From Bacillales bacterium UBA3789 (GTDB lineage Bacteria; Bacillota_I; Bacilli_A; RF39; UBA660), in assembly GCA_002369415.1 (NCBI GenBank), contig DFEZ01000002.1, positions 185,019 to 249,018 of the forward strand: a stretch of DNA of 64,000 nucleotides, read 5' to 3'. The notes below the pieces were generated by a model. The model did not search any database, was not told the DNA's origin, and was given only the letters and a program-made list of their open reading frames with translations. Made by a program: the position numbers and the translations under genes. This document shows, piece after piece, positions 2,993 to 57,332 of the stretch. Each line of letters begins with the position of its first letter. Positions within the stretch are counted from its first letter, which is position 1.

Positions 2993-3069
2993 TGGTGTCC
3001 GCGAGGCGACTCGAACGCCTGACCGATCGCTTAGAAGGCGATTGCTCTATCCAGCTGAGCTACGCAGAC
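2993..3069 (-). tRNA. tRNA-Arg (anticodon TCT)
   Basis: The reverse complement, GTCTGCGTAGCTCAGCTGGATAGAGCAATCGCCTTCTAAGCGATCGGTCAGGCGTTCGAGTCGCCTCGCGGACACCA, folds as a cloverleaf with a CCA end. The anticodon loop is CTTCTAA. An upstream TTGTTT-N17-TATAAT promoter lies at about 3085-3115. Confidence 0.9.
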
Positions 3070-22543: not shown

Positions 22544-24904
22544 TTAATTTTGAACGATTTCTGTGTAATCTTCGATGTCATCATCATCGTCTTCGTCTTG
22601 ATCCTCTTCATCATCTTGTCTTCTATAACGTTTTGCAGCAAGTGATGCTCCTAAAACTCCTGCTCCAGCTAAAGCTCCTGCGGCAGCAGCTGCTCCATAA
22701 TGACCTGATGCTCTTCCGCCAACTTTTGTATCTGGAATAACTTCATATTCAGGTACATATTCTGGTGCTGTTGGTGGAACTGGTTTTGGTTCAGTTCTTG
22801 GTTCTGTTCTAGGCTCAGTCTTAGGTTCAGTTTTTGGTTCTGTCTTAGGCTCAGTCTTAGGCTCAGTTTTTGGTTCAGTCTTAGGTTCAGGTTTTGGATC
22901 AGTTTTTGGAGTTGTTGGATCAACTCTTCTTGGTTGTGGATCTGGATCTGGTCCTGGATCAGGCCCTGGTCCTGGAGTTGGTCCTGGATCACCTGTTGGT
23001 GGAACTGGATCTGGTTTTGGATCATCAGTTGGTGGAACTGGATCTGGTTTTGGATCACCTGTTGGAGGAACTGGTTTTGGTTCTGTATCTGGCATTAAGT
23101 CAGGTGGTCCATCATCCTCATCATAGTATTTTCTATTTTCATCAACAAATAATGCTCTTGATAATTTAGTAGGCATACCTAAAGCTTGTGATACATGTTG
23201 TCCAAGTTCTCCAACACCATCTTTTGCCATATTTAATCCAGTATATAGCATAGTTCCATGTGCAAGTTCTCCAACTAAGTTTCCAACCCCCGCTGCTCTT
23301 GTATGAGCAAGTTTATATGAGTGTCTTAATCCATCATCTATATATGTAGGGTTAACATTAGATACTCTAAACATATCTAATCCTCTACTGTTATTTAAAT
23401 ATTTATTAACCGTATTTTGTGCTGCTGCTGGTATTTTTTCACCAGCAGCTTTAGCTGCTTCTACTTCTCTAAGGGCTGCTCTATATTCACTATATGTCAC
23501 TTTCTTATTATTTAAGTAGTCATTAACAATTTTCATATCTGATTTTGATGGTTTATTACCTGCCGCTTTTGCAGCATCAACTCTTCCTAATGCATCTTTA
23601 TATTCATTATAATTTTTCATTCTAGTTTGAACATCTCTAATTGGTTGTGTAACGTTATCAAACTGGCCAACAGTTGCAGCTTTAAATATTCCAGCAGCAC
23701 CTTTTCCAGCATCATTGTATACAGTAATTAAATGATCCATATCATAGAATCCTTTTGTATATGCTTTTGATGTTAATCTATCAGTGTATCCTCCAAGTTT
23801 TGCAATTTCTGTAATTGCTGCATTTTTATTACGTGTTAGCCCATCTATAACCATTTTTTCTGCTTCTGCAGTTGATTTTCCTAGATAATTACCATACGAT
23901 GAGTCTGCAATTGCCTTATAATATTCAGCAGTTCCTTTGCCATATTTTTTAGCGGCTCTTGCTGCAGCACTTTTTGCTGATGCAATTCTTTCTTCTGCTG
24001 TTTTTGTTGCATTTTTAATTCCTTCTTGATAGTTTTGTTCAAGTTGTTTTAATTGTTGACGTTCTCCAAGTTTTCCAGCAGCATATGCCATACCACCTTG
24101 GATTGCAGCATCTTTGATACCAAATAAAGTAGCAGCTCCTAAACCATATCCATGGTCGAAGGCATCTTCGGATCCTGATCCTAAACCTCCAACTGCTGCA
24201 ACTAATGCGTTCGCGTTTGTCGTTGATTGTAGTGCTCCAGCAATTTTTGCCATCTTTGTTCCTTTTCCTGCTACTCTTGCTATAGCATTATTAGCTCCAC
24301 CGACATATCCACCCATAAGGATATAACCTGTTGCTTGTCCTAATCCTCTAAAGACGGACGCCGCTATACTGTCTGGTCCAAATGCTGAGTATTTAGCTAT
24401 ATCTCTATCATAATAAACCCAATCAAATAGTTCTCTTGATAAGTCTCTCTTTTGGAAATTAATAATTGCTTCACTGGCTTTTGTATCAAATATTTTATCT
24501 ATTGGTTTTGCAGCCCATGCTCCAAGCAATAATACAGCATCTCCAATATCTTCAAAAGCTCCTACGAAACCTTCTCCAACTTTTGATGCTGCCATACCAA
24601 CAGTACCAAATACTTTTTTCCATAAAGGTGCATTGTCATAATCTTGATTATATTGAACAATAGCCTGTACTCTTGAATTAATCTCTTTAATTGCATTATC
24701 TATTAATTCTATACAAACTGCTGGTTTATCTTTTACAGTTGCTAAAGAAGAAGCACTTCCTACGTGTTCTATTCCTCTAGCGCCTTGTACTATACTTACA
24801 GCACCAGTTAAATCAGCTTCTGTACCAGATAGTTTAGCTTTTGCTTTATCTAGATAATCTAATACATTATCAACTTTCTTTTGATCATATCTTAGTTTAG
24901 CCAT
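22544..24904 (-). CDS. Large Pro-rich repeat protein with a C-terminal tail-anchor TM helix and no signal peptide
   Basis: 786 aa. N-terminal helical domain and a Gly/Ala-zipper central region. The C-terminal region has PVPPTGDPKPD x3 and TEPK x9 repeats, then a TM helix (AAAAAGALAGAGVLGASLAA) and an acidic tail. Confidence 0.5.
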   Translation of the reverse strand: MAKLRYDQKKVDNVLDYLDKAKAKLSGTEADLTGAVSIVQGARGIEHVGSASSLATVKDKPAVCIELIDNAIKEINSRVQAIVQYNQDYDNAPLWKKVFGTVGMAASKVGEGFVGAFEDIGDAVLLLGAWAAKPIDKIFDTKASEAIINFQKRDLSRELFDWVYYDRDIAKYSAFGPDSIAASVFRGLGQATGYILMGGYVGGANNAIARVAGKGTKMAKIAGALQSTTNANALVAAVGGLGSGSEDAFDHGYGLGAATLFGIKDAAIQGGMAYAAGKLGERQQLKQLEQNYQEGIKNATKTAEERIASAKSAAARAAKKYGKGTAEYYKAIADSSYGNYLGKSTAEAEKMVIDGLTRNKNAAITEIAKLGGYTDRLTSKAYTKGFYDMDHLITVYNDAGKGAAGIFKAATVGQFDNVTQPIRDVQTRMKNYNEYKDALGRVDAAKAAGNKPSKSDMKIVNDYLNNKKVTYSEYRAALREVEAAKAAGEKIPAAAQNTVNKYLNNSRGLDMFRVSNVNPTYIDDGLRHSYKLAHTRAAGVGNLVGELAHGTMLYTGLNMAKDGVGELGQHVSQALGMPTKLSRALFVDENRKYYDEDDGPPDLMPDTEPKPVPPTGDPKPDPVPPTDDPKPDPVPPTGDPGPTPGPGPDPGPDPDPQPRRVDPTTPKTDPKPEPKTEPKTEPKTEPKTEPKTEPKTEPRTEPRTEPKPVPPTAPEYVPEYEVIPDTKVGGRASGHYGAAAAAGALAGAGVLGASLAAKRYRRQDDEEDQDEDDDDDIEDYTEIVQN
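22790..23095 (-). repeat. In-frame coding tandem repeats (12-nt TEPK units and 33-nt PVPPTGDPKPD units)
   Basis: Visible periodicity on the plus strand: ...ggctcagtcttaggctcagtttttgg... and ...ggaactggatctggttttggatca... Confidence 0.7.
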
Positions 24905-29540: not shown

Positions 29541-32500
29541 TTAATAATCTCCTTTTGATATTACTTTTAGTTCAATTTCATGTGTTTTACCATCATTGAC
29601 TAAGTTTATTACATTTTTATCTTTCCAGATTCCATCTAATGTTAAGGACTCTTTCTTAGCTTTCATAACTTTGATGTTATAAGTTGTATCCATATAAGTA
29701 TATACTGCTTTGAATGAATCCCAAGCAACTGGCATTCTTGGATCTAATCTTAATTTATCTCCAGATTTATGAATACCAATTATACTTTCAATTCCTACTC
29801 TATAGAACCATCCTGCAGAACCTGTATACCAAGTCCATCCTCCTCTTGCTGGGAAGGATTCAGATGAATAAATATCTGCAGCAATTACATATGGCTCAAC
29901 TTTATACTTATCAACATCTTTTTGTTTCTTAGTTCTATTAGCTGGATTAATCATTTGATAGTAACGGTATGCTCTATCGTAATAACCAGCTTTTATTAGT
30001 GCTAATATATACCATGCAACTGCATGTGTATATTGTCCTCCATTTTCACGAATACCTTCAGGATAATTCATTATATATCCTGGATTATTTAGTGATTTAG
30101 CAAATGGTGGTGTTAATAATTTAATAATCTTATTCTTATCATCTACTAAGTTTTCTTCTACTGAGTTTATTAGTTTTTGAACTCTATCTTTAGGAGCAAC
30201 TTCACTTAGTATAGAGAAACTTTGAGATATTAAGTCAATCTTACATTCACTATTTTCATGAGATCCTAATTTATCTCCATTATCGAAGAATGCTCTTAAA
30301 TAGTAATCTCCATCCCATGTTTTCTTATTAAGATTATCTTTTAATTTTTCATTGAAATCTAAGTATTTATCATAATCAATAGTAACTTTTGCTTTCTTTA
30401 GTACTTCAACGAACATATCAATTACTACATGTAAGAAGAAACCTAACCAAACACTTTCTCCTTTTCCTTTGATACCTACTCTATTCATTCCATCGTTCCA
30501 GTCTCCACCACCCATTAATGGGATTTTGTGTTTACCTAAGGAATCCATAGATAGTTCAAGGGATTTGATACAGTGTTCAAGAAGTGTTGCTCCTCCTTCA
30601 GAATAATTAAATACTATACCTTTTTCATTTTCATAGTCACTTAATTCTTCTCCTACAACAAATGGTATATGTTCATTTAATATTTCTTTATCTCCTGTAA
30701 TATCTATATAGTAAGCAGTTGCATATACTAACCATAAGAAGTCATCTTTATATCTACTTCTTAAACCAAAGTGATTCTTTTCATGCCACCAGTGAAGTAC
30801 ATCTCCTGTTTCAAATTGATGTGCTGCATTAGTTATAATTTGTTTTCTTGTATATGCTGGATTTACTATAGCAATATTCATAGCATCTTGTAATTGATCA
30901 CGGAAACCGAAGGCACCTGATACTTGATAGAATCCTGCTTTAGCATTGATTCTTGATGATAGTGTTTGATATAAGTACCAACCATTAATCATAAAGTCAA
31001 AACTATTATCAGGTGAATTAACTTGAACTACTCCTAATGTTTTATCCCATCTTTCTTTTACTGCTTTTAATTCTTTCTTTGCATTTTGGATATTAGTGTA
31101 TTTCTTAATTAATTCTTTATTTTCATTATCACTTAGGCTACATCCTAAGACAAATACTAATGTCTTTTCTTCTTGCTCATCTAAGTCTAGGTCAAATGTA
31201 ATATTTTTTGTTAACATCTTTTCACAAGTGGCTGAATCAATATGTTCTGATGCTGACATAAATACGTTTACATCTCCATAGTTAATACTATATACATTAC
31301 GCATCTTTAGATAATTATCATCACCCATAAATTCTGTAAGTATATGACGAGATGTTTTTTCTTCAAAGTTTCCGAATGTTGGATTAATCCAGAATTCTAC
31401 ATTTGTTTTAACTTTAGTATTCTTTTTATTTTGTAATTTCATTAAATAGATTTTTACATTATCTTCACATGCAACAAATTCTGTTACTTTATGTTTAAAT
31501 CTATCTGTTTCACTTTCTAAGATTGTGTAACCAAATCCATGAGTACATTTTTCAGGATCAAAGTTTTTACCATCAAATTTAAATCCTTCAGATTTATCAT
31601 TTAATACTATATCGTTTGTCCATGATGTTATCTTAAATTCTCCTGAGTTATAAGCATATGTATAACCACAACCATTATTTGTAATTATAGTACCAAAGTT
31701 TTTATTTGATATTACATTACTCCATGGAGTTGGAGTGTTTTTGTTATAGATAACATATTCTTTACCATTTGGTTTAAATCCTCCATATCCATTATCGAAT
31801 AATAATTTTTCAGTATTTTCTTCTTTAATATTTTCTTCATTTGGATATGTTGGGTAATCACTTACTTTATTCTTTTGTTGCATCTCTTCAACAGCTTCTT
31901 TTAAGCTAATATGATTTTCAACAACAAATCTAATTCTTGGAACTACATCAAGTAAGCTCTTATCTTCTTTAGTAATATTACTACTATTAATTACTGTTAC
32001 ACTTCCAGGAGTATGATAGAAACTATTTAATGTATACATTCTATATAATTCATTATCTATTTGTTTCTTAACAATTCTTTGTGTCTCTCCAGACTCATTA
32101 TTAATAATAATTACATCTACGAAGATTGATTTATTTTTAAAGTATTCAAATGCTTTTAAGATATCATAAACAAAACTCATATCTTCTATATCACTTAATT
32201 CTACTGTGATTATTGGTCTATCTCCAGAAACTCCAAATTTCCATAATCCTGATTGCCCTAAAGCATTCTTTCTTAATAGATCCATTCTTTCATCATTAAC
32301 TGATATTCTTGTTGTTTGATATAAGAAGTTTAACATTATGTTATAAGTTCTCATTTCTGCACCAGTAATGTTTAGTGTCTTAGTATCTATTACATTCATT
32401 AGAGTAGATATTTTAAATTCTCTATCTAATACTGATTTGGAATCATAAGCTTCAATAATATCATTTATTTGCTCTTTACTTCTACCAAAACCAACCAATA

Positions 32501-35500
32501 GATATACAGTCACTGAATCATTTGCAGGAACTACTATTCTATTTCTTAATGACATTACTGGGTCTAAGTTATCTCCAACATAGTTAGTTAACTTAGAGTT
32601 TAATGCTTGAGCAGTATTAATAAGATTATTTCTACCAATAAATGAACTTCTCTCTGTTTCATATGAATATTTTTCTTCAGGATTTTCTATTATTAATCTA
32701 GTTACCATATAACTATTAACATTAGAATCTCCTCTATTTTTTCTCTTAGCAATTAAACTATTTGTTCTTTCATCATATTCTGTTGAAATGAACATATTAT
32801 TAAATACTTTATGAGATATATCATCCATATTCTCTGAAAGAATTGGTTCAGTATAACTTGTTAATTCTAATTCTTTATTAACACTTGATTCATTCTTAAA
32901 TGATATTTTTCTTATTTCAGCATGATGACTCTTACATACAACTATTTCTGTCTTAGTAGAAATATCTGTATCTCTTCTTAAGAATTTTATTTTATCTGCT
33001 GCGAAAACAACTTCATATTTGTCTGGTTTAATATTCATAGGAGCATATGTATTACTCCAAATATATTTATTATCCAAATCTTTTATGAATAAGAAAATAC
33101 CATAATCTTGTTCTGTTACTTTACGATATCTATTTAATTGTTGTGTACGATATCTTGAGAAACTGTTACCTCTATCATTCATGATAAGAGAATATTTCTT
33201 GTTAGATAGTACTGACATTTCTGGTAAGTATGAAATATAATCAAAGGCTCTAATATCATTTTCAATTGTTTCCTTATTGTAGTTATATTTCTTATAACCA
33301 GCCATCTTAAGATCAATACTAGCTTTAATTTGAACTTTCTCTTTAAGTAATAATTCGAATGTTTTTACATTGATATTTGAATGGAATAAGTTTTGAATTA
33401 CACCTTTCTTTAAATAATTAGTTAATCCAAGAAGACTCATTCCTTCATGGTGAGCAAAATATGATCTTACTACACCTTTATTATCATAATCATATGATTC
33501 GTATAAACCATATTCTCCATACATATCTAGTTCTTTAAATTTATTAATATTTTCATATACATCTTGTGGGAACATATCCATTACCATTAAAGATGAATAT
33601 GGTGATAATACTAATCTATTTTCTTTTTCTTCTTTTGCTTTTAAATATGGAGTAGCAAATGCTTGATACTTATAATTTAGTGAATTATCTAATTCATTAT
33701 AAGCAGATTCTGAAATACCCCAAGGCAATTTACGAGAAACGCTATTTACATATTCTTTTTGACATAAATGAACGAAATTATATGTTTCATCAAGCAAAGT
33801 GTTTTGATAATTCTTCATGAATAGTAATGGCATGTAATATTCGAATGCTGTACCACTCCATGAAATTAATCCTTTTCTACCTTTATATGTTGTTAGTGAT
33901 TTATCTAGACAGAACCAATGTTTATTTGGAACTTCTCCTAAACAAATTGCTAAGTAACTTGTAAGACGTGATTCTGATGCAAATTTATTATAGTTATAAT
34001 CTGATAATTTACCTTCATTTTCATCATAACCAATACTAAATACATCTTTCTTAGTATATAGTTTTTTGAAGTTAGTATTTGTAATTAGTTTATCAGCTAA
34101 TTTAACTAATTTATCTTCATTTACTAATTCTAGGAATTCTCTTGCTACTATTAAACAAGCAACTAAGTTTCCAGAGTCTACTGTTGATACAAAGTTAGGA
34201 TAAAGTACTTTCTTTGACTTAATATCATACCAGTTATATAAATGACCGTGCCATTTATCTAGTGAATCAATTGAATCTAGAATTTTTCCTAATAAATCAA
34301 TTGCTTTATCTTTTTCAATAAAGTTCAACTCATAAGCACTAACTACTGCTGTTAAAGAGAATCCTATAGCTGTAGGAGATGTTCTCATATCAAGTTTTTC
34401 TTCTCTATTTTCTTGATAATTATCTGGAATTAAATAGTTATATTCTTCTTTTAAATTATCTTCGAAATATTTCCATGTTCTTAGAGCTAATTCTTCTACT
34501 TCATTAATCTCTTTATCTTTTAATTCTAATTCATGATGATTAATATCTTTACTTACTGCATATAATACAAATGGTGCAGTTGCGAATACAAATGCTATTA
34601 CAAATGTCACAATATTATGTGTAAATATTCCTATTACAACAAATACTATTGCAACAATAATATTAAATATAAAGTTTCTAATATAATTCTTTAGACTTCC
34701 ATTAACTGTCTTTTCTACTTCTTCTGCAGTAATCCAGTTTAATAGATTATCATGACTATAAATTAATCTATATAGTGTTCTAAAGAATGCATCCATATAT
34801 AATTTAGAATAATATGGAATAGTTGCAAACATGATATAAGATCTTAATAAGATACTCTTTCCACCAAAGTATAAGTTCTTATAATAAACTTCTTTGTGAT
34901 TCTTTTCTTTTTTAGCCATCTTACTTCTTAAGAAGAAGATAATTGAAACAGCTATTTCTAGAACAACTACTCCTACCCATAGATATGGATATACTCCTTT
35001 AGTTGTAAATCCTAATAATAATATTAGTAATAACATTGGATTTAAGAACATTCTTATAATGTTATCTAATATTTTATATTTACCTAAGAAATTAATTGGA
35101 TTCTTTACTTTTTTGTTAGCTTTATTTTTTACTTTATTACCTAACCATCCAATAATTTGAGTATCTCCTCTAGCCCATCTATGTTGTCTAGTTACATCTA
35201 TTAAGAATTTTGATGGGAAATCATCTATTACTTCGATATCTGATACGTATCCACATCTAATATAATTACCTTCAAGCAAGTCATGTGAAAGAATTAAATT
35301 ATCTGGGAATGTATTATCTAATACTTTATTAAATATTTCTAGATCATAAATACCTTTTCCAACGAAACTTCCTTCACCAAATGAGTCTTGATATACATTT
35401 GGAATAACTGCAGTATATGTATCAAATCCACCGATACCTGCAAATACTTGACTATATAAACTTTTATTAGTTGCTTCAATATCTAATCCAACTCTTGGTT

Positions 35501-37184
35501 GCATTAAACCATATCCATGAATTACTTTTGTTCCTTCTTTATTAAGTATTGGTTTATTCATAGGATGTGCCATTGCTCCTACTAAGTTAAGAGCAGAATT
35601 TAATACTAGTTTTGTATCTGTATCTAGAGTTATTACATATTTAATACCTAATTTATTATTATGTAACATATTTACATTGAAGTATTTTTCTTCATCTAGT
35701 TTATTTCCTAAAAGGATATTATTAAATTGAAGTAATGCTCCTCTTTTTCTTTCATAACCTAAATACATTTTTTCATGTTCATTCCATAATCTTTTTCTAT
35801 ATATGAAATAGAACAAATCTTTTTTATATTTCTTATTTAAGTTTTCAGCATATTCTCTACCATATTCTGATATTTCTTCATCAAAGTCCATTACTTCTTG
35901 TTGACCTGACTTTACATCTCCTAAAAGAGTAAAGTAAATATTATCACTCTTATTTACTAAGTAGAATGACTCTAATGTATCAAACATTTGCTTAATCTTA
36001 GTCGTTGAAGAAACTATTGTAGGTATAACAACCATTGTTTTAGATTCTTCTGGGATACCTTTAGAATAATCTAGTTTTGGTATTACTGTAGTTGGTACTA
36101 CATTAACTAATATTTCATTCATTATTTGAATAATTAATTGACTAAGTGGAATGAATAAAATAATAAATCCTAATACTCTTATCTTAATAAAATATGCAGA
36201 TAAGAAATATGCTGCTACTCCTGTTAATAAGAATAATACTAATAAATAAACAATTATTCTTGGGGTAGAAGATTTTTCTTTAAATAATTTAAATCCGATA
36301 TGTTCATCTTTAGTAAATATCTTTTCTAAATATGAATATTCATCAGTATGATGCTTTTTAGCTAACTTTAATAATCTCTTACGATAAGATCTTTTTGTCT
36401 CTATTGTTGTTGCTTTATATACTTCGTCAGTTAATAATAATCTTTCTGTTTTAGATACTTTTTCATATAATTCTTCTATAGAAAATTCAAAGAATTCTTT
36501 GAAGTCATTAAATATATTTGATATTAGTACGTTGTTATTAATATTATTTTGATATTCTTCATTAACTAATTCTTTTAAACTAATATCATTATTATTTAAA
36601 TATTCATTTAAAGATTTAAATATATCTCCATTATTCTCAATTCTTGATAATTGATTGTTAATTTCAAATATATAGTGTTTATTTCTTGTTAAATCAAAAT
36701 TTTCAGAGATAAATGCGTTTAATGTTAAATGATTCTTCTTTTCTCTTACTATTAATTCAACATCTTCTTTATCAACTAATTTTCTATACTCTTCTCTACA
36801 TAGGTTATTTAATCTTTCAGTGTATATAAAAATTAGCATTGGTAAAATACAATCTAATTCTATATAAGTAAAATTCTTTTTATTTTGTTTTTGATATGCT
36901 CTTAGTTCTTCAACTATATATTTAAAACTAACATTATAATTTTTCTTGCTTACAATATTTTTTAATAGATAATAATTTTCATTTATTTGTTTTAGATGTC
37001 TCTTTAATTCTTTTTTAGAATTAATAATATTATTTTTATGCTCAACTAACAAATAATAGTTATCAATTAACCATTCATTTGTAATTTCTACATACTCATG
37101 CCTTTTTGTTTTATCCACAAGAAAATTATAATAATCAGTTATGTCATTAAAGTTATTTAAAAATTTTTTAATAATGTTAGCCAT
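29541..37184 (-). CDS. Cyclic beta-1,2-glucan synthase-like giant protein (GT2/GT84-type glycosyltransferase domain plus a C-terminal GH94 phosphorylase-like domain)
   Basis: 2547 aa. TM segments flank a GT domain carrying DTD (VITLDTDTKL) and QHRWARGD (a QxxRW motif). The C-terminal domain has GH94 signatures GGGDWNDGMN, GFRDQLQD and HWWHE. Confidence 0.7.
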   Translation of the reverse strand: MANIIKKFLNNFNDITDYYNFLVDKTKRHEYVEITNEWLIDNYYLLVEHKNNIINSKKELKRHLKQINENYYLLKNIVSKKNYNVSFKYIVEELRAYQKQNKKNFTYIELDCILPMLIFIYTERLNNLCREEYRKLVDKEDVELIVREKKNHLTLNAFISENFDLTRNKHYIFEINNQLSRIENNGDIFKSLNEYLNNNDISLKELVNEEYQNNINNNVLISNIFNDFKEFFEFSIEELYEKVSKTERLLLTDEVYKATTIETKRSYRKRLLKLAKKHHTDEYSYLEKIFTKDEHIGFKLFKEKSSTPRIIVYLLVLFLLTGVAAYFLSAYFIKIRVLGFIILFIPLSQLIIQIMNEILVNVVPTTVIPKLDYSKGIPEESKTMVVIPTIVSSTTKIKQMFDTLESFYLVNKSDNIYFTLLGDVKSGQQEVMDFDEEISEYGREYAENLNKKYKKDLFYFIYRKRLWNEHEKMYLGYERKRGALLQFNNILLGNKLDEEKYFNVNMLHNNKLGIKYVITLDTDTKLVLNSALNLVGAMAHPMNKPILNKEGTKVIHGYGLMQPRVGLDIEATNKSLYSQVFAGIGGFDTYTAVIPNVYQDSFGEGSFVGKGIYDLEIFNKVLDNTFPDNLILSHDLLEGNYIRCGYVSDIEVIDDFPSKFLIDVTRQHRWARGDTQIIGWLGNKVKNKANKKVKNPINFLGKYKILDNIIRMFLNPMLLLILLLGFTTKGVYPYLWVGVVVLEIAVSIIFFLRSKMAKKEKNHKEVYYKNLYFGGKSILLRSYIMFATIPYYSKLYMDAFFRTLYRLIYSHDNLLNWITAEEVEKTVNGSLKNYIRNFIFNIIVAIVFVVIGIFTHNIVTFVIAFVFATAPFVLYAVSKDINHHELELKDKEINEVEELALRTWKYFEDNLKEEYNYLIPDNYQENREEKLDMRTSPTAIGFSLTAVVSAYELNFIEKDKAIDLLGKILDSIDSLDKWHGHLYNWYDIKSKKVLYPNFVSTVDSGNLVACLIVAREFLELVNEDKLVKLADKLITNTNFKKLYTKKDVFSIGYDENEGKLSDYNYNKFASESRLTSYLAICLGEVPNKHWFCLDKSLTTYKGRKGLISWSGTAFEYYMPLLFMKNYQNTLLDETYNFVHLCQKEYVNSVSRKLPWGISESAYNELDNSLNYKYQAFATPYLKAKEEKENRLVLSPYSSLMVMDMFPQDVYENINKFKELDMYGEYGLYESYDYDNKGVVRSYFAHHEGMSLLGLTNYLKKGVIQNLFHSNINVKTFELLLKEKVQIKASIDLKMAGYKKYNYNKETIENDIRAFDYISYLPEMSVLSNKKYSLIMNDRGNSFSRYRTQQLNRYRKVTEQDYGIFLFIKDLDNKYIWSNTYAPMNIKPDKYEVVFAADKIKFLRRDTDISTKTEIVVCKSHHAEIRKISFKNESSVNKELELTSYTEPILSENMDDISHKVFNNMFISTEYDERTNSLIAKRKNRGDSNVNSYMVTRLIIENPEEKYSYETERSSFIGRNNLINTAQALNSKLTNYVGDNLDPVMSLRNRIVVPANDSVTVYLLVGFGRSKEQINDIIEAYDSKSVLDREFKISTLMNVIDTKTLNITGAEMRTYNIMLNFLYQTTRISVNDERMDLLRKNALGQSGLWKFGVSGDRPIITVELSDIEDMSFVYDILKAFEYFKNKSIFVDVIIINNESGETQRIVKKQIDNELYRMYTLNSFYHTPGSVTVINSSNITKEDKSLLDVVPRIRFVVENHISLKEAVEEMQQKNKVSDYPTYPNEENIKEENTEKLLFDNGYGGFKPNGKEYVIYNKNTPTPWSNVISNKNFGTIITNNGCGYTYAYNSGEFKITSWTNDIVLNDKSEGFKFDGKNFDPEKCTHGFGYTILESETDRFKHKVTEFVACEDNVKIYLMKLQNKKNTKVKTNVEFWINPTFGNFEEKTSRHILTEFMGDDNYLKMRNVYSINYGDVNVFMSASEHIDSATCEKMLTKNITFDLDLDEQEEKTLVFVLGCSLSDNENKELIKKYTNIQNAKKELKAVKERWDKTLGVVQVNSPDNSFDFMINGWYLYQTLSSRINAKAGFYQVSGAFGFRDQLQDAMNIAIVNPAYTRKQIITNAAHQFETGDVLHWWHEKNHFGLRSRYKDDFLWLVYATAYYIDITGDKEILNEHIPFVVGEELSDYENEKGIVFNYSEGGATLLEHCIKSLELSMDSLGKHKIPLMGGGDWNDGMNRVGIKGKGESVWLGFFLHVVIDMFVEVLKKAKVTIDYDKYLDFNEKLKDNLNKKTWDGDYYLRAFFDNGDKLGSHENSECKIDLISQSFSILSEVAPKDRVQKLINSVEENLVDDKNKIIKLLTPPFAKSLNNPGYIMNYPEGIRENGGQYTHAVAWYILALIKAGYYDRAYRYYQMINPANRTKKQKDVDKYKVEPYVIAADIYSSESFPARGGWTWYTGSAGWFYRVGIESIIGIHKSGDKLRLDPRMPVAWDSFKAVYTYMDTTYNIKVMKAKKESLTLDGIWKDKNVINLVNDGKTHEIELKVISKGDY

Positions 37185-38184: not shown

Positions 38185-38261
38185 TGGCGCCCCAACTAGG
38201 ACTTGAACCTAGGACCCCTTGATTAACAGTCAAGTGCTCTAACCAACTGAGCTATTGAGGC
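38185..38261 (-). tRNA. tRNA-Asn (anticodon GTT)
   Basis: The reverse complement is GCCTCAATAGCTCAGTTGGTTAGAGCACTTGACTGTTAATCAAGGGGTCCTAGGTTCAAGTCCTAGTTGGGGCGCCA. Confidence 0.9.
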
Positions 38262-38269
38262 ATTTAAAA

Positions 38270-38346
<77 letters not shown>

Positions 38347-38553: not shown

Positions 38554-38629
38554 GGGGCGTTAGCTCAGTTGGTAGAGCAACTGACTCTTAATCAGTGGGT
38601 CTAGGGTTCGAATCCCTAACGCCCCACCA
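38554..38629 (+). tRNA. tRNA-Lys (anticodon CTT)
   Basis: GGGGCGTTAGCTCAGTTGGTAGAGCAACTGACTCTTAATCAGTGGGTCTAGGGTTCGAATCCCTAACGCCCCACCA, with a TTGATA...TATAAAAT promoter upstream. Confidence 0.9.
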
Positions 38630-50085: not shown

Positions 50086-50160
50086 TGGAGCGAACGAGGG
50101 GAATCGAACCCCCATCACAGCCTTGGCAAGGCCGTATTCTAACCATTGAACCACGTTCGC
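50086..50160 (-). tRNA. tRNA-Gly (anticodon GCC)
   Basis: The reverse complement is GCGAACGTGGTTCAATGGTTAGAATACGGCCTTGCCAAGGCTGTGATGGGGGTTCGATTCCCCTCGTTCGCTCCA. A terminator (AATCAGC-AAAC-GCTGATT plus Ts) lies downstream. Confidence 0.9.
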
Positions 50161-50166
50161 ATAAAT

Positions 50167-50240
50167 TGGAGGGGCTAGACGGATTTGAACCGACGATCAA
50201 AGTTTTGCAGACTCACGCCTTACCACTTGGCTATAGCCCC
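50167..50240 (-). tRNA. tRNA-Cys (anticodon GCA)
   Basis: The reverse complement is GGGGCTATAGCCAAGTGGTAAGGCGTGAGTCTGCAAAACTTTGATCGTCGGTTCAAATCCGTCTAGCCCCTCCA. Confidence 0.9.
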
Positions 50241-54213: not shown

Positions 54214-54885
54214 CTAACCTATCTTCTTTACTAGTTCTTTTAAGTTCCTTTGTCCTTTCATTATTTCTCCAAAATAACTACTACTAGGTTGATCTATATC
54301 TCTTAAACCTAATAATTCTTTTAAATGTTGTATTGAACTATTTGGAACATTTGATTTTCTTAATTCTGATGATAATAATTCAGTAAGAAGTAAATGTAAT
54401 TGGAATTGATTTAATTCTTGCAATCTTTCTACATCAACTGAATCTAGTATTCTATAATTACTTGGATCTACTATATATAATTCTCCATTATATAAAGTAT
54501 ATCCTGGAGTTGCTCCATTAAGTAATACTCTTCTTTGACTTAATGCTTCAATATCTTTTTCAATTACTCTTACATTATTAATAAACTCATCTGTTGGTGC
54601 ATTTGAAATTTTTTTACCTGCACCCTTTTGTGAAACAAGTTTCATTGTATAACCTCTAAAAGCGTTATTATAAAATAATAGTTTTTTTGGAAGAATAATT
54701 CTTTCTGTTCTTATATCTGTTAGGTATTTTGCTGTTTCTTCATCAATTGGTTCTTCCCCTTCATCAAATACTCTTATTGCATATCCTTTATAACGGTATA
54801 CATTTCCCGCTTTTGTATCAGGTTTAAAATTTAATTGTCTAAGACCAGAAAGATCTATACTTTTATTTTCTAAACGATATCCCAT
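54214..54885 (-). CDS. Hypothetical protein
   Basis: 223 aa with no recognisable family. Confidence 0.35.
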   Translation of the reverse strand: MGYRLENKSIDLSGLRQLNFKPDTKAGNVYRYKGYAIRVFDEGEEPIDEETAKYLTDIRTERIILPKKLLFYNNAFRGYTMKLVSQKGAGKKISNAPTDEFINNVRVIEKDIEALSQRRVLLNGATPGYTLYNGELYIVDPSNYRILDSVDVERLQELNQFQLHLLLTELLSSELRKSNVPNSSIQHLKELLGLRDIDQPSSSYFGEIMKGQRNLKELVKKIG

Positions 54886-54926: not shown

Positions 54927-55523
54927 TTATTTTTTATAAAAATTTGAAATAAATTTAGCAAATTGATATAAAATTATTTCACTCTTATTAATTGCATAAC
55001 TTTTTCCAATAGCTTTTCCACCTATTGTTAGTGATGCTATTACTGCTGCAACTATAAGTCCTGTAACTAATAAATTGAATTTAAAATCTGCTGCTAATAT
55101 TGCAGTTATAGCAGTTCCTGCAGCACCTGAAATAATACCACATACATCTCCAATTACATCACAACAAAAGCTTGATACTTTATCAGCATTCTTTTTAAAA
55201 GCAACTGCAATACTTGCTCCTTTTACTTTTCTAGAATTCATTGAATGGAATACAGCTTCATCTGCAGTTGTTACAGCAACTCCAATAATATCAAACATTA
55301 TACCTAATCCAATAAATAATAATGTAATTATAATACCTAACCATAATGGGAAATTAGGTATTGTCATTTGTGCTATAAAAGATAAGCATACTGAAACTAT
55401 AAATGCAGTTATTGATACGATCGCAATCCATTTAACATTTACTTTTTCTTTTTTTACTTTCTCTTTTTTCTTATCTATTTCTTTTAAACTTTCTAGTTCT
55501 TTATTTTTCTTAAATAAAAACAT
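54927..55523 (-). CDS. Small 4-TM membrane protein with a DxxxD motif (OapA-like candidate)
   Basis: A K/E-rich N-terminus followed by 4 TM helices; CCDVIGDVCG in TM3. It has its own TGTTATAAT extended -10 element and lies directly downstream of the large ncRNA. Confidence 0.4.
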   Translation of the reverse strand: MFLFKKNKELESLKEIDKKKEKVKKEKVNVKWIAIVSITAFIVSVCLSFIAQMTIPNFPLWLGIIITLLFIGLGIMFDIIGVAVTTADEAVFHSMNSRKVKGASIAVAFKKNADKVSSFCCDVIGDVCGIISGAAGTAITAILAADFKFNLLVTGLIVAAVIASLTIGGKAIGKSYAINKSEIILYQFAKFISNFYKK

Positions 55524-55573
55524 AAAAATTCTCCTTTATCATTAATCGATAATTATCGTTTTCATTATAACAT

Positions 55574-55600
55574 AAAAAAAAGTAGATATTCTACTTCATT
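55574..55600 (-). terminator. Intrinsic terminator of the large ncRNA
   Basis: On the minus strand the hairpin is AAGTAGA-ATA-TCTACTT followed by TTTTTTTT. Confidence 0.6.
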
Positions 55601-56200
55601 TTTTATAAATTGCTTGGCTTTCACTATAGTTAACTTTGAGCCTTAGGTCAAGTAGGATTTCCCTAATTTCTACAGGTTCGTTACCAAACTTGCGGTTCCC
55701 CTTTAAAGAAATTAATATGTCGTCACCAATTCATACGACTTGATTACCACTTAGTGCCCACTACAATCCTATAATGATTACACTCTAGGAGATTTCCTCA
55801 CCAGCGCTTTAATATTAGTCCTTTTTTGCAAAAATGATTTCAAGATGCAGTACTTAATATAAGTGGCCGCTTATATAAAGCAAGATCATCTATCCCAAGA
55901 TTTTCACTCAAGACAGGCTACACTGCACATAACTTTCGCCACATACAGGTTCTATCCTATTTCGTAAAAGAATCATCAGAACGAAGTTCGTATAGATTAA
56001 TCCACAAGAATAGGTCTCCACGAAAATTGGGTCGGGATTCGTATGCCATTACGAGTCGCCCAAGATTCTCTCTCCAGCATCCACCCCAAACTGGGCGTAA
56101 GAAGCAGACACCAAAGGTTTCACAGATATGCCCTTTAACGAATTTTTAAGCTCGTCTTCATAAAAAAGCAATTGACTAGAATAATGTGCCATCAATTACG
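55574..56200 (-). ncRNA. Large (~630 nt) ORF-free structured RNA candidate, possibly OLE-class
   Basis: No ORF of 60 aa or more on either strand. GC is about 40-50%, against a ~27% background. It is bracketed by a consensus promoter and an intrinsic terminator. It did not match RNase P, tmRNA, SRP or 6S features that I could check by eye. Confidence 0.5.
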
Positions 56201-56206
56201 TATGTA

Positions 56207-56235
56207 ATTATATCATATTTACGAAAAAATGTCAA
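56207..56235 (-). promoter_or_regulatory. Consensus sigma-A promoter of the large ncRNA
   Basis: Minus strand TTGACA (plus 56230-56235), a 17-nt spacer, and TATAAT (plus 56207-56212). Confidence 0.65.
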
Positions 56236-56243
56236 CTTTACAA

Positions 56244-57332
56244 CTATTTTTTCAATACTGGGTTGACTTCTTCTGATACATTATCTCTTACTGAATCATT
56301 TCCATAAATTAGTTTTAATTTACTTGAGAAATATGCTCTTTCATAATAACCATTCTCATAGATATAATTCCAATACTCTGTATATCTATCTTCACTTGGT
56401 ATTTGAGCAAGCATTCCTCTATAGTAATTATATATTTCCATTTTCTCATTATCATCCGAATATTTATTATTAAAATATGTATCAAGATAATTAATCATAT
56501 AATTATAAGTTTCTGGATCTATTTCTCTACCTGATTCTAATCTTTCAAGTACTCTATCTGATGCATTAATAAATGTAGTTGCATCTCCTGTACCTTCATA
56601 CTTTCTTAATTCATCTTTTATTACATTCATATTTCCTGTTGTATATGCTTCTAATACTCTATCTGGTTCAACCATTTCACATAATAATTTAGTTAATGCT
56701 ACTTCATATGGATAGCTTGATTCTTCTACAAATGGGTTTGGAGTAAAATATTCATTTACTAATATTTCTGTTACACCTTCTGCTAGGAATACTGGTATAT
56801 TAACATTTCTATAATTAGTAAATAAACAATGTAATAATTCATGTATTTGTGTTTCTCTTTTTAATGAATCGCTTTCAGTATATATATTAATTATATCTTT
56901 ATTAAAATTAAAATCTCCTAAGATAGTTTCACTTGTTCCATCAGGTCTTGGTACATAGAAAATATCTACATTACCAATAGAACCATATGCACTATTACTA
57001 TCTATATATGGATTATCATTAATAATATCAGCAAATGAATATACAATAGCTTTTTCTTCATCAGAAAGATTACTATTATTAATAGCAGCATGTATTATTA
57101 CTAAGTTATCATTATTACTTGCTTCAATTCCTGTAATTTGCTCTACTTCTTCTAGCATTGATTCTATATTTGAACCAGCTAATTCATTACTTTTGTCTCG
57201 ATTTAAATTTATATCTTCATTTGAACAATGAGTTAGTGCTGCATAAATCATCATCATGATGATAAAGTACTTTGCTCCTCCTCCAGAAGATCTGTTATTT
57301 CTACCCATACTATAACCCCCTAATCGGGTCAT
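56244..57332 (-). CDS. Secreted/lipoprotein-type zinc metallopeptidase (HExxH)
   Basis: N-terminal hydrophobic signal ending in THC, and a HELLH motif. Confidence 0.5.
   Translation of the reverse strand: MTRLGGYSMGRNNRSSGGGAKYFIIMMMIYAALTHCSNEDINLNRDKSNELAGSNIESMLEEVEQITGIEASNNDNLVIIHAAINNSNLSDEEKAIVYSFADIINDNPYIDSNSAYGSIGNVDIFYVPRPDGTSETILGDFNFNKDIINIYTESDSLKRETQIHELLHCLFTNYRNVNIPVFLAEGVTEILVNEYFTPNPFVEESSYPYEVALTKLLCEMVEPDRVLEAYTTGNMNVIKDELRKYEGTGDATTFINASDRVLERLESGREIDPETYNYMINYLDTYFNNKYSDDNEKMEIYNYYRGMLAQIPSEDRYTEYWNYIYENGYYERAYFSSKLKLIYGNDSVRDNVSEEVNPVLKK

Follow-up and report, generated by a model that had tools for sequence, protein, structure and literature searches.

The RNAs called OLE (for ornate, large, and extremophilic) make up a family of large non-coding RNAs that has reportedly been known since 2006, when it is said to have been introduced by Puerta-Fernandez et al. 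Here we describe a locus that we consider, with very high confidence, to be a canonical ole-oapA locus: a full-length member of this already described family next to the gene of its dedicated partner OapA (OLE-associated protein A). It lies in a stretch of 64,000 nt from Bacillales bacterium UBA3789 (contig DFEZ01000002.1, positions 185,019 to 249,018 of the forward strand), which is referred to as the window in the following; all coordinates are those of the window.

In the organisms studied so far, ole and oapA are almost always arranged in tandem, and oapA is found only in ole-containing organisms (PMC9723947). The usual neighbours of ole are genes that serve isoprenoid synthesis, DNA repair, translation, and similar functions. 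A survey of GTDB counted about 2,800 ole-carrying genomes, uncultured gut Bacilli included; beside the full-length type it recognized variant 1 (TANB77), which often lacks the OapB site, and variant 2, which is common in RF39 and lacks the stems P7 and P8 (Fernando and Breaker 2024). OapA binds OLE RNA cooperatively and is required for its membrane localization (Block et al. 2011, cited in PMC12265935). Its DxxxD motif has been treated in several studies (PMC9723947, PMC11332333), and the D100A/D104A mutant of OapA (‘PM1’) is dominant-negative in H. halodurans (PMC9723947). Cells of H. halodurans without the OLE complex are sensitive to ethanol, cold, modest Mg2+, and poor carbon sources. According to recent cryo-electron microscopy models, a long OLE helix may span the membrane. 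The CNNM-like fold of OapA suggests divalent-cation transport, with the RNA proposed to stand in for the regulatory domains of MpfA.

The ole gene and its transcription signals

The locus consists of the following elements, all encoded on the minus strand:

56207 to 56235, minus strand: ole promoter, matching the consensus at 12 of 12 positions and carrying TG, conserved at a fixed position in about 45 loci
55574 to 56201, minus strand: ole, the OLE RNA gene (Rfam match, covariation in 46 sequences, no open reading frame of 60 aa or more), with stem P1 formed by 5′ UAAUU..UGGC and 3′ GCCA..AAUUU
55574 to 55596, minus strand: intrinsic terminator of ole with a 7-bp stem, a 3-nt loop and eight U (folding and conservation)
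55564 to 55572, minus strand: extended −10-like element TGTTATAAT, read from the sequence, directly after the U-tract
54927 to 55523, minus strand: oapA, encoding 198 aa with four transmembrane (TM) helices and DVIGD at residues 122–126

A scan of the whole window with Rfam 15, of the kind that the first-pass annotation of this DNA had proposed for the minus strand of 55560–56260, yielded a match to RF01071 (OLE RNA) at 55598–56208 on the minus strand. This was the only large-RNA family matched; no RNase P, tmRNA, 6S, SRP, ROOL, GOLLD, or raiA match reached its gathering score anywhere in the 64 kb. The RF01071 match is not truncated, spans model positions 1–616 of 616, and scores 391.3 bits (gathering score 50, E = 1.9 × 10−111). 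In its alignment, the hairpin at model positions 198–256 has 15 nt inserted in its loop. The reading of the region as an ole-oapA locus, put forward in the first-pass annotation, is supported by this full-length match as well as by the 41% identity of the adjacent protein to published OapA and its fold match to CorB (see below). The fallback offered there, an undescribed class of large non-coding RNA, is wrong, because the RNA is Rfam OLE (RF01071, 391 bits over its full length) and the protein matches published OapA and its reported fold match. Since the family is in Rfam and the 2024 survey, made on GTDB, where these MAGs (metagenome-assembled genomes) are included, reported OLE across such lineages, this locus is already known and not a new RNA class.

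As the first-pass annotation had described, neither strand of 55574–56200 contains an open reading frame of at least 60 aa, the longest ones measuring 40 and 48 aa, and the region is enriched in G+C. It reaches 37.6% G+C compared with 26.8% for the window and about 27% in each 2-kb flank, with individual 60-nt blocks lying between 22% and 55%. Of 1268 sliding windows of 627 nt, only 23 were as G+C-rich.

Related loci were gathered with one genome per species from relatives of the downstream protein, giving 50 loci. All of them come from uncultured metagenome-assembled genomes (MAGs) labeled Bacilli, Erysipelotrichaceae, Firmicutes, Mollicutes, or Tenericutes, with a few labeled Bacteroidota; the sources were goat, sheep, roe deer, rabbit, rumen, and human gut. 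Judged from relatives that are 93–99% identical, and from these labels, the host of the window would belong to the Bacillota, as do the anaerobic or extremophilic hosts of OLE RNA. Using nhmmer, a homologue of the window RNA was found upstream of the OapA homologue and on the same strand in all 50 loci, truncated only at contig ends. In seven of them, extra genes separate ole from oapA. The 12 most divergent loci were rescanned with Rfam and all contained full-length OLE (348–421 bits), and among the 50 loci none was seen in which the ole region is translated. The Bacteroidota labels are most likely binning errors. In particular, L004, L037, and L023 are Bacilli-type ole-oapA contigs filed under Muribaculaceae or Parabacteroides goldsteinii, almost certainly through binning contamination. 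The few OLE matches outside Bacillota found by Fernando and Breaker (2024) likewise look like errors of assembly or taxonomy.

The ole promoter begins 9 nt past the stop codon of the upstream gene. It comprises TTGACA (56235–56230), a 17-nt spacer, and the extended −10 element TGATATAAT (56215–56207, with TG at 56215–56214 and TATAAT at 56212–56207), and is thus the TTGACA-N17-TATAAT promoter recognized at first reading. It was the sole perfect 12/12 site in the 3.5 kb scanned. Upstream sequence was available for 45 loci, and in essentially all of them both the −35 and the extended −10 hexamers are kept at a fixed distance from stem P1, while spacer and flanking sequences diverge. The transcript is predicted to extend from about 56200 to 55574, i.e. 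about 626 nt, in agreement with the earlier estimate of about 625 nt.

At the 3′ end, the hairpin AAGUAGA-AUA-UCUACUU (55596–55580) is followed by eight U (55581–55574). The hairpin has a folding energy of −8.8 kcal/mol (z = −3.8 relative to shuffled sequences). It is conserved across the loci, where compensatory changes occur and 90% of cells are paired. Compensatory variants include AAGCAG/CUGCUU and GGCAAAGG/UUUUGCUU; the T-run is conserved too. The hairpin plus U8 terminator of the first-pass annotation is therefore present and conserved, but it is weak in G-C pairs and not of textbook quality. An automatic terminator scan made no call at the ole 3′ end because the stem has only two G-C pairs (fewer than three).

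Immediately past the U-tract, TGTTATAAT at 55572–55564 corresponds to the extended −10 element that had been assigned to the downstream gene, and we regard it as a putative −10 element for oapA. The ribosome-binding site of oapA, AAGGAG, lies at 55536–55531. In most loci, TGnTATAAT follows straight after the T-run ahead of oapA. It is absent between terminator and oapA in L005, L010, L012, L022, L024, L031, and L044, among others; in L041 a terminator is missing altogether and oapA is preceded by only 24 nt. From these signals we infer that ole is an autonomous transcription unit in this clade, with its own consensus sigma-A-type promoter and intrinsic terminator. The oapA gene would then be expressed from the −10 element past the terminator, by terminator read-through, or both.

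A different transcript architecture can be drawn from the same signals. The RNA could chiefly serve as the long, structured 5′ leader of an operon made up of ole and oapA, with the hairpin and U-tract acting as a leaky or regulated attenuator and oapA being transcribed by read-through from the ole promoter. We consider this rather unlikely. The two G-C pairs of a stem that the scan did not call, the seven named relatives without a −10 element before oapA, the missing terminator of L041, and the location of the H. halodurans ole within a polycistronic transcript (PMC12265935) all speak for such a leader; yet nearly all loci have kept the hairpin and U-run, with compensatory changes, the stability of the hairpin is high for its composition, and TGnTATAAT stands right behind the U-tract in most loci. 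The question touches transcript architecture only, as the RNA is OLE either way, and a leader and an autonomous unit are not mutually exclusive.

Secondary structure and type of the RNA

A total of 46 full-length copies were aligned (alignment A1, mean column identity 78%). Their P1-to-P1 length varied between 564 and 611 nt, and about 240 columns were invariant, a figure that describes conservation within the clade only. The Rfam structure was projected onto A1 through the window sequence. In the projected OLE fold, 90.1% of 7116 cells formed standard pairs, compared with 38–46% when the 3′ partners were slid by 1–3 columns. In this test for covariation, which the first-pass annotation had suggested, changes on both sides were found for 96 of the 158 pairs, and none of 500 column shuffles reached any of the observed pairing measures.

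Applied blind to A1, RNAalifold recovered the same hairpins and added long-range helices (columns 30–42/445–469, 45–52/434–441, and 80–83/321–324) that enclose the 5′ two-thirds of the RNA. P1 pairs 5′ UAAUU..UGGC with 3′ GCCA..AAUUA, the same form as reported for the C. acetobutylicum RNA (Kretsch et al. 2025). Taken together, P1 and the long-range helices were 95.2% paired, compared with 32–54% after sliding; compensatory changes among the long-range helices were concentrated in the 8-bp helix 45–52/434–441.

Stem names were mapped tentatively from nucleotide numbers quoted in the literature, without the published figures. These comprise (i) J4a/5 at nt 89–92, the P6 3′ end at nt 188–191, and a mimic of Shine-Dalgarno (SD) and anti-SD sequences within P6 (PMC12054373); and (ii) the GUGA loop of P13 at nt 501–504 with the bulged U498 (PMC7936274). 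In model positions, this map places P4a at 54–73, P5 at 93–139, P6 at 144–190, P7 at 198–256, P8 at 264–288, P9 at 297–385, and P12–P15 at 436–595. The determinants of functional motifs were taken from PMC7936274, PMC12265935, and PMC12054373.

By this tentative map, the window RNA has both P7 (about 58 nt) and P8. The loop of its long P9 reads GCGGCCAC and includes the palindrome GGCC, and a palindromic P9 loop is used for RNA dimerization through a kissing loop (PMC12265935). GGCC was present in 44 of the 46 sequences and absent from L048 and L049, the two most divergent copies (A1 columns 374–382). P13 carries a G-[GUGA]-C loop and a 2-nt 5′ bulge; a GNRA tetraloop on P13 and a bulged stem nucleotide make up the OapB site (PMC7936274). 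Within the clade, the P13 loop varies within GNRA only (GUGA, GUAA, GAGA, GAAA, and GCGA). The loop of P14.1 is GUAA, and the J4a/5 and J6/7 k-turn nucleotides are conserved. P7 is the more variable element (A1 columns 204–279), being cut to 29–37 nt, compared with about 55 nt, in five copies (L010, L050, L002, L012, and L041) and extended to 71–75 nt in three others.

Published bit-score cut-offs for the full-length type (390 bits or more), variant 1, and variant 2 were set with a different covariance model, with which the Rfam score of 391 is not comparable, and the type was therefore assigned from the stems present. On this tentative mapping, the window RNA is of the full-length type and neither variant 1 nor variant 2.

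It is very improbable that we are dealing with the remnant of an OLE gene that has decayed and lost its function, or with a protein-coding gene that has degraded. The host clade does have reduced genomes, shortened OLE variants occur in such gut lineages (PMC11332333), and one small hairpin is missing. Against decay, substitutions across 46 species are overwhelmingly pair-preserving with about 240 columns left invariant, the promoter and terminator are conserved, oapA is intact and strongly conserved, and the region holds no open reading frame of 60 aa or more.

OapA and the standing of the identification

The 198-aa protein encoded downstream has a mass of 21,453 Da, four hydrophobic segments (residues 33–51, 64–82, 127–145, and 149–167), and DVIGD (DxxxD) at residues 122–126, at the start of the third TM helix; the first-pass description of a four-TM, DxxxD protein of about 21 kDa was accurate. 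In the AlphaFold2 model, helices extend over residues 30–57, 60–86, 113–147, and 151–179. There is no OapA model in Pfam or NCBIfam, and membership was therefore tested by other means. As reference we took the OapA sequence of supplementary table 4 in Kretsch et al. (2025), used there for AlphaFold. The comparison with OapA, likewise proposed at the outset, was positive: BLASTP gave 41% identity over 166 aa (E = 3 × 10−28) with DVIGD aligned to DVIGD. Among 36 homologues, D122 and D126 were invariant. So were R98, K99, K110, K111, and K115, which form a basic cluster in the TM2–TM3 loop; K101 was nearly invariant. A conserved cluster of basic residues, located on the cytoplasmic face, is a feature of OapA. 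The best fold match was CorB (7M1U), which is also the fold match reported in the literature for H. halodurans OapA. Judged by sequence and predicted fold, the 198-aa protein is OapA.

The sole Pfam match was PF01595 (CNNM) at 17.7 bits (E = 0.003), below the gathering score of 28.4, and NCBIfam gave no match; according to the literature, OapA likewise sits below threshold against the PF01595 hidden Markov model. A sequence search of the Protein Data Bank (PDB) with the 198-aa protein returned no homologue, and therefore no OapA structure is deposited at detectable similarity. A large protein database contained 5,723 homologues, all unnamed.

The weak PF01595 match and the presence of CorB and CorC as top fold matches would also be expected of an ordinary CNNM/MpfA/CorB-type Mg2+ transporter standing beside the RNA by coincidence, but this has next to no credibility: the protein measures 198 aa and is not an MpfA/CorB transporter because it has no CBS or CorC_HlyC domain, its CNNM score stays below the gathering score, it has a DxxxD motif, which is absent from CNNM domains (PMC11332333), it has four TM helices versus three, it is 41% identical to published OapA, and its gene accompanies OLE in 50 of 50 loci. 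That the region represents a new large RNA class resembling OLE merely in size and context is just as implausible, given the full-length Rfam match at 391 bits, the presence of all OLE conserved nucleotides and helices, and a bona fide OapA as partner. Protein-coding sequence, OLE pseudogene, new RNA class, and ordinary CNNM transporter were thus all considered and rejected on the evidence given above.

Several points weigh against a canonical ole-oapA locus. (i) A 12-nt variable hairpin (model positions 424–435) is missing from the window RNA in the RF01071 alignment. (ii) The minimum free energy of the whole RNA as a single sequence is not significantly below that of shuffled sequences (z = −1.6), and hence the structural case rests on covariation and not on thermodynamics. 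(iii) The P6 3′ strand reads CGACCCAAUUUUCG and lacks CCUCC (anti-SD), so that the SD/anti-SD mimic, which in P6 of H. halodurans is the bS21 binding site (PMC12054373), is not evident; the mimic may not be a defining feature of the family, and the host 16S rRNA is encoded outside the window. (iv) Searches for OapB, OapC, and bS21 genes (tblastn of published OapC and bS21) found none in the 64-kb window, which says nothing of the rest of the genome. (v) Expression, RNA ends, formation of the ribonucleoprotein (RNP), membrane localization, and phenotype would be as described elsewhere, being carried over from other species. (vi) The literature has yet to establish what OLE does biochemically. 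No evidence contradicting the identification as an ole-oapA locus was found.

What was obtained directly here is homology of sequence, structure, and partner, together with conserved expression signals; the following steps are transferred from work on the OLE RNAs of H. halodurans and Clostridium. OLE RNA would fold into two domains joined by long-range helices and would dimerize, partly through the palindromic GGCC loop of P9. Dimers of OapA, which has four TM helices, a fold like that of CNNM/CorB, and a DxxxD motif critical for its function, would bind the RNA close to P2 and P4a and so keep it attached to the cell membrane. OapB could be bound at the P13 GNRA hairpin and P12.2, and OapC and bS21 around the k-turn region. 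The resulting particle would help the cell to withstand stresses, among them short-chain alcohols, cold, an excess of Mg2+, and poor carbon sources, possibly by regulating divalent-cation flux through OapA.

Genomic neighborhood and comparison with known systems

The gene order around ole is conserved in the clade: Sir2 (on the opposite strand), a 254-aa protein, a glucosaminidase-like protein, a 362-aa HExxH protein, ole, oapA, a 223-aa protein, an ABC-F ATPase, a PedC-like thioredoxin, and a bPH protein. None of these neighbors belongs to the gene classes usually found around ole. Further features referred to below are:

54214 to 54885, minus strand: next gene after oapA, encoding a 223-aa orphan of protein-kinase-like fold
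2996 to 3069, 38188 to 38346, 38554 to 38626, and 50089 to 50240: tRNA genes (Rfam)

Directly upstream of the ole promoter, the 362-aa protein (56244–57332, minus strand) has an N-terminal hydrophobic segment and the motif HELLH (HExxH). It had no Pfam or NCBIfam match, is found upstream of ole in 20 loci with 30–40% identity, and may be a membrane-bound or secreted metalloprotease.

The 223-aa gene is preceded by its own TGTTATAAT (54918–54910). Among 5.8 billion proteins, the encoded orphan had just 113 homologues, all from Bacilli MAGs and none with a Pfam domain. Its gene stands directly behind oapA in 32 of the 50 loci, as well as in the loci of its most distant homologues; at least eight loci pass from oapA straight to the ABC-F gene without it. 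Neither the canonical Lys nor the HRD and DFG residues show obvious conservation, and it is therefore probably a pseudokinase or an atypical kinase; E109, D111, N133, and N159 are its invariant polar residues. The linkage with ole-oapA is suggestive only and marks the gene as a syntenic neighbor and a candidate OLE component. That the OLE particle of this clade has a lineage-specific protein component or regulator, for which the 223-aa kinase-fold orphan is the candidate, strikes us as doubtful. If this protein did bind or modify the OLE RNP, it would offer a new handle on the function of OLE.

In several relatives, the genes inserted between ole and oapA could be distinguished. L008 (5594–5902) and L043 (2975–3286) have a gene for a hydrophilic protein of about 103 aa there, which is distantly related to a 131–151-aa protein in L013 (5584–5976) and L014 (3351–3743) and has in common with it the C-terminal motif EEMFKD-D. 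An unrelated 200-aa gene occupies this position in L058–L060 (2751–3353 in L058), and 1.8–3.5 kb of inserted genes were observed in L043, L047, and L049. No homologues of the inserted genes were found in the window.

The remainder of the window is ordinary chromosome, with genes for Ile-tRNA synthetase, a class II aminoacyl-tRNA synthetase, a Mur ligase, and D-Ala-D-Ala ligase; by this gene content, the host makes peptidoglycan. Besides OLE, the Rfam matches consisted of six tRNAs, including two tandem pairs on the minus strand. The 627-nt windows richer in G+C than ole all fell within a Pro-rich coding repeat near 22.5 kb. This G+C peak of the window (up to 43.7%) belongs to the gene at 22544–24904 (minus strand), especially 22550–23200, and is coding, not RNA; the 786-aa product has no Pfam match and includes a repeat rich in Pro/Asp/Thr/Glu/Lys (PKTEPKTEPK...), after which comes a hydrophobic C-terminal anchor. 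A 2547-aa protein encoded at 29541–37184 (minus strand) has glucoamylase-like, GH94 supersandwich, and GH94 catalytic domains, and from these domains appears to be cyclic beta-1,2-glucan synthase-like or glycan phosphorylase-like.

The identification as such matters little, but it is useful as a clean annotation, as ole and oapA are unnamed in the source assemblies. Its value is comparative. A full-length-type OLE persists in a reduced, host-associated, and non-extremophilic lineage, and ole has its own conserved promoter and terminator here, outside the usual isoprenoid/DNA-repair cluster and beside a clade-restricted kinase-fold orphan. An autonomous promoter and terminator of ole would give a clean system for defining the primary transcript. 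Since the biochemical function of OLE is still to be established, natural variants such as the missing hairpin, the variable P7, and the loss of GGCC in two relatives can help to sort essential from dispensable features.

Four comparisons place the locus among described systems. Compared with MpfA, CorB, and CorC of the CNNM family (PDB 7M1U and 7CFG), the window protein lacks the CBS pair and CorC_HlyC, carries DxxxD, and has four TM helices versus three. With OapA of H. halodurans (WP_010898928.1; sequence of Kretsch et al. 2025), it shares 41% identity, DVIGD, four TM helices, a size of about 21 kDa, the basic TM2–TM3 loop, the CorB-like fold, and a gene position directly after ole. It differs from the compared OapA by a long and highly charged, Lys/Glu-rich N-terminal extension of 30 residues, which is absent there, whereas the compared OapA has a longer basic C-terminal tail.

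With OLE variants 2 (RF39 gut Bacilli) and 1 (TANB77), the window RNA has in common the type of host, i.e. uncultured, host-associated, low-GC Bacillota MAGs with reduced genomes, as well as the conserved core nucleotides. Variant 2 is entirely devoid of P7 and P8, whereas the window RNA has both, and in variant 1 the OapB site of P13 is often missing, whereas the window RNA has the GNRA loop and bulge of P13, both as read from the tentative stem map.

Compared with full-length OLE (RF01071; type according to Fernando and Breaker 2024), the window RNA lacks the hairpin at 424–435, has no obvious CCUCC in P6, and is AU-rich (38% GC). The neighbors differ as well, with cell-wall hydrolase-like genes and the HExxH protein upstream, and the kinase-fold orphan, the ABC-F ATPase, and the PedC-like thioredoxin downstream. 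While the H. halodurans ole lies inside a long polycistronic cluster together with genes for isoprenoids, DNA repair, and translation, the ole of the window comes with its own promoter and terminator. The two nevertheless agree in their length of about 600 nt from P1 to P1, in all Rfam helices but one, in the junction nucleotides, the long P9 with GGCC, P7, and P8, in the GNRA loops on P13 and P14.1 and the P13 bulge, and in the presence of oapA immediately downstream in an anaerobic Bacillota host.

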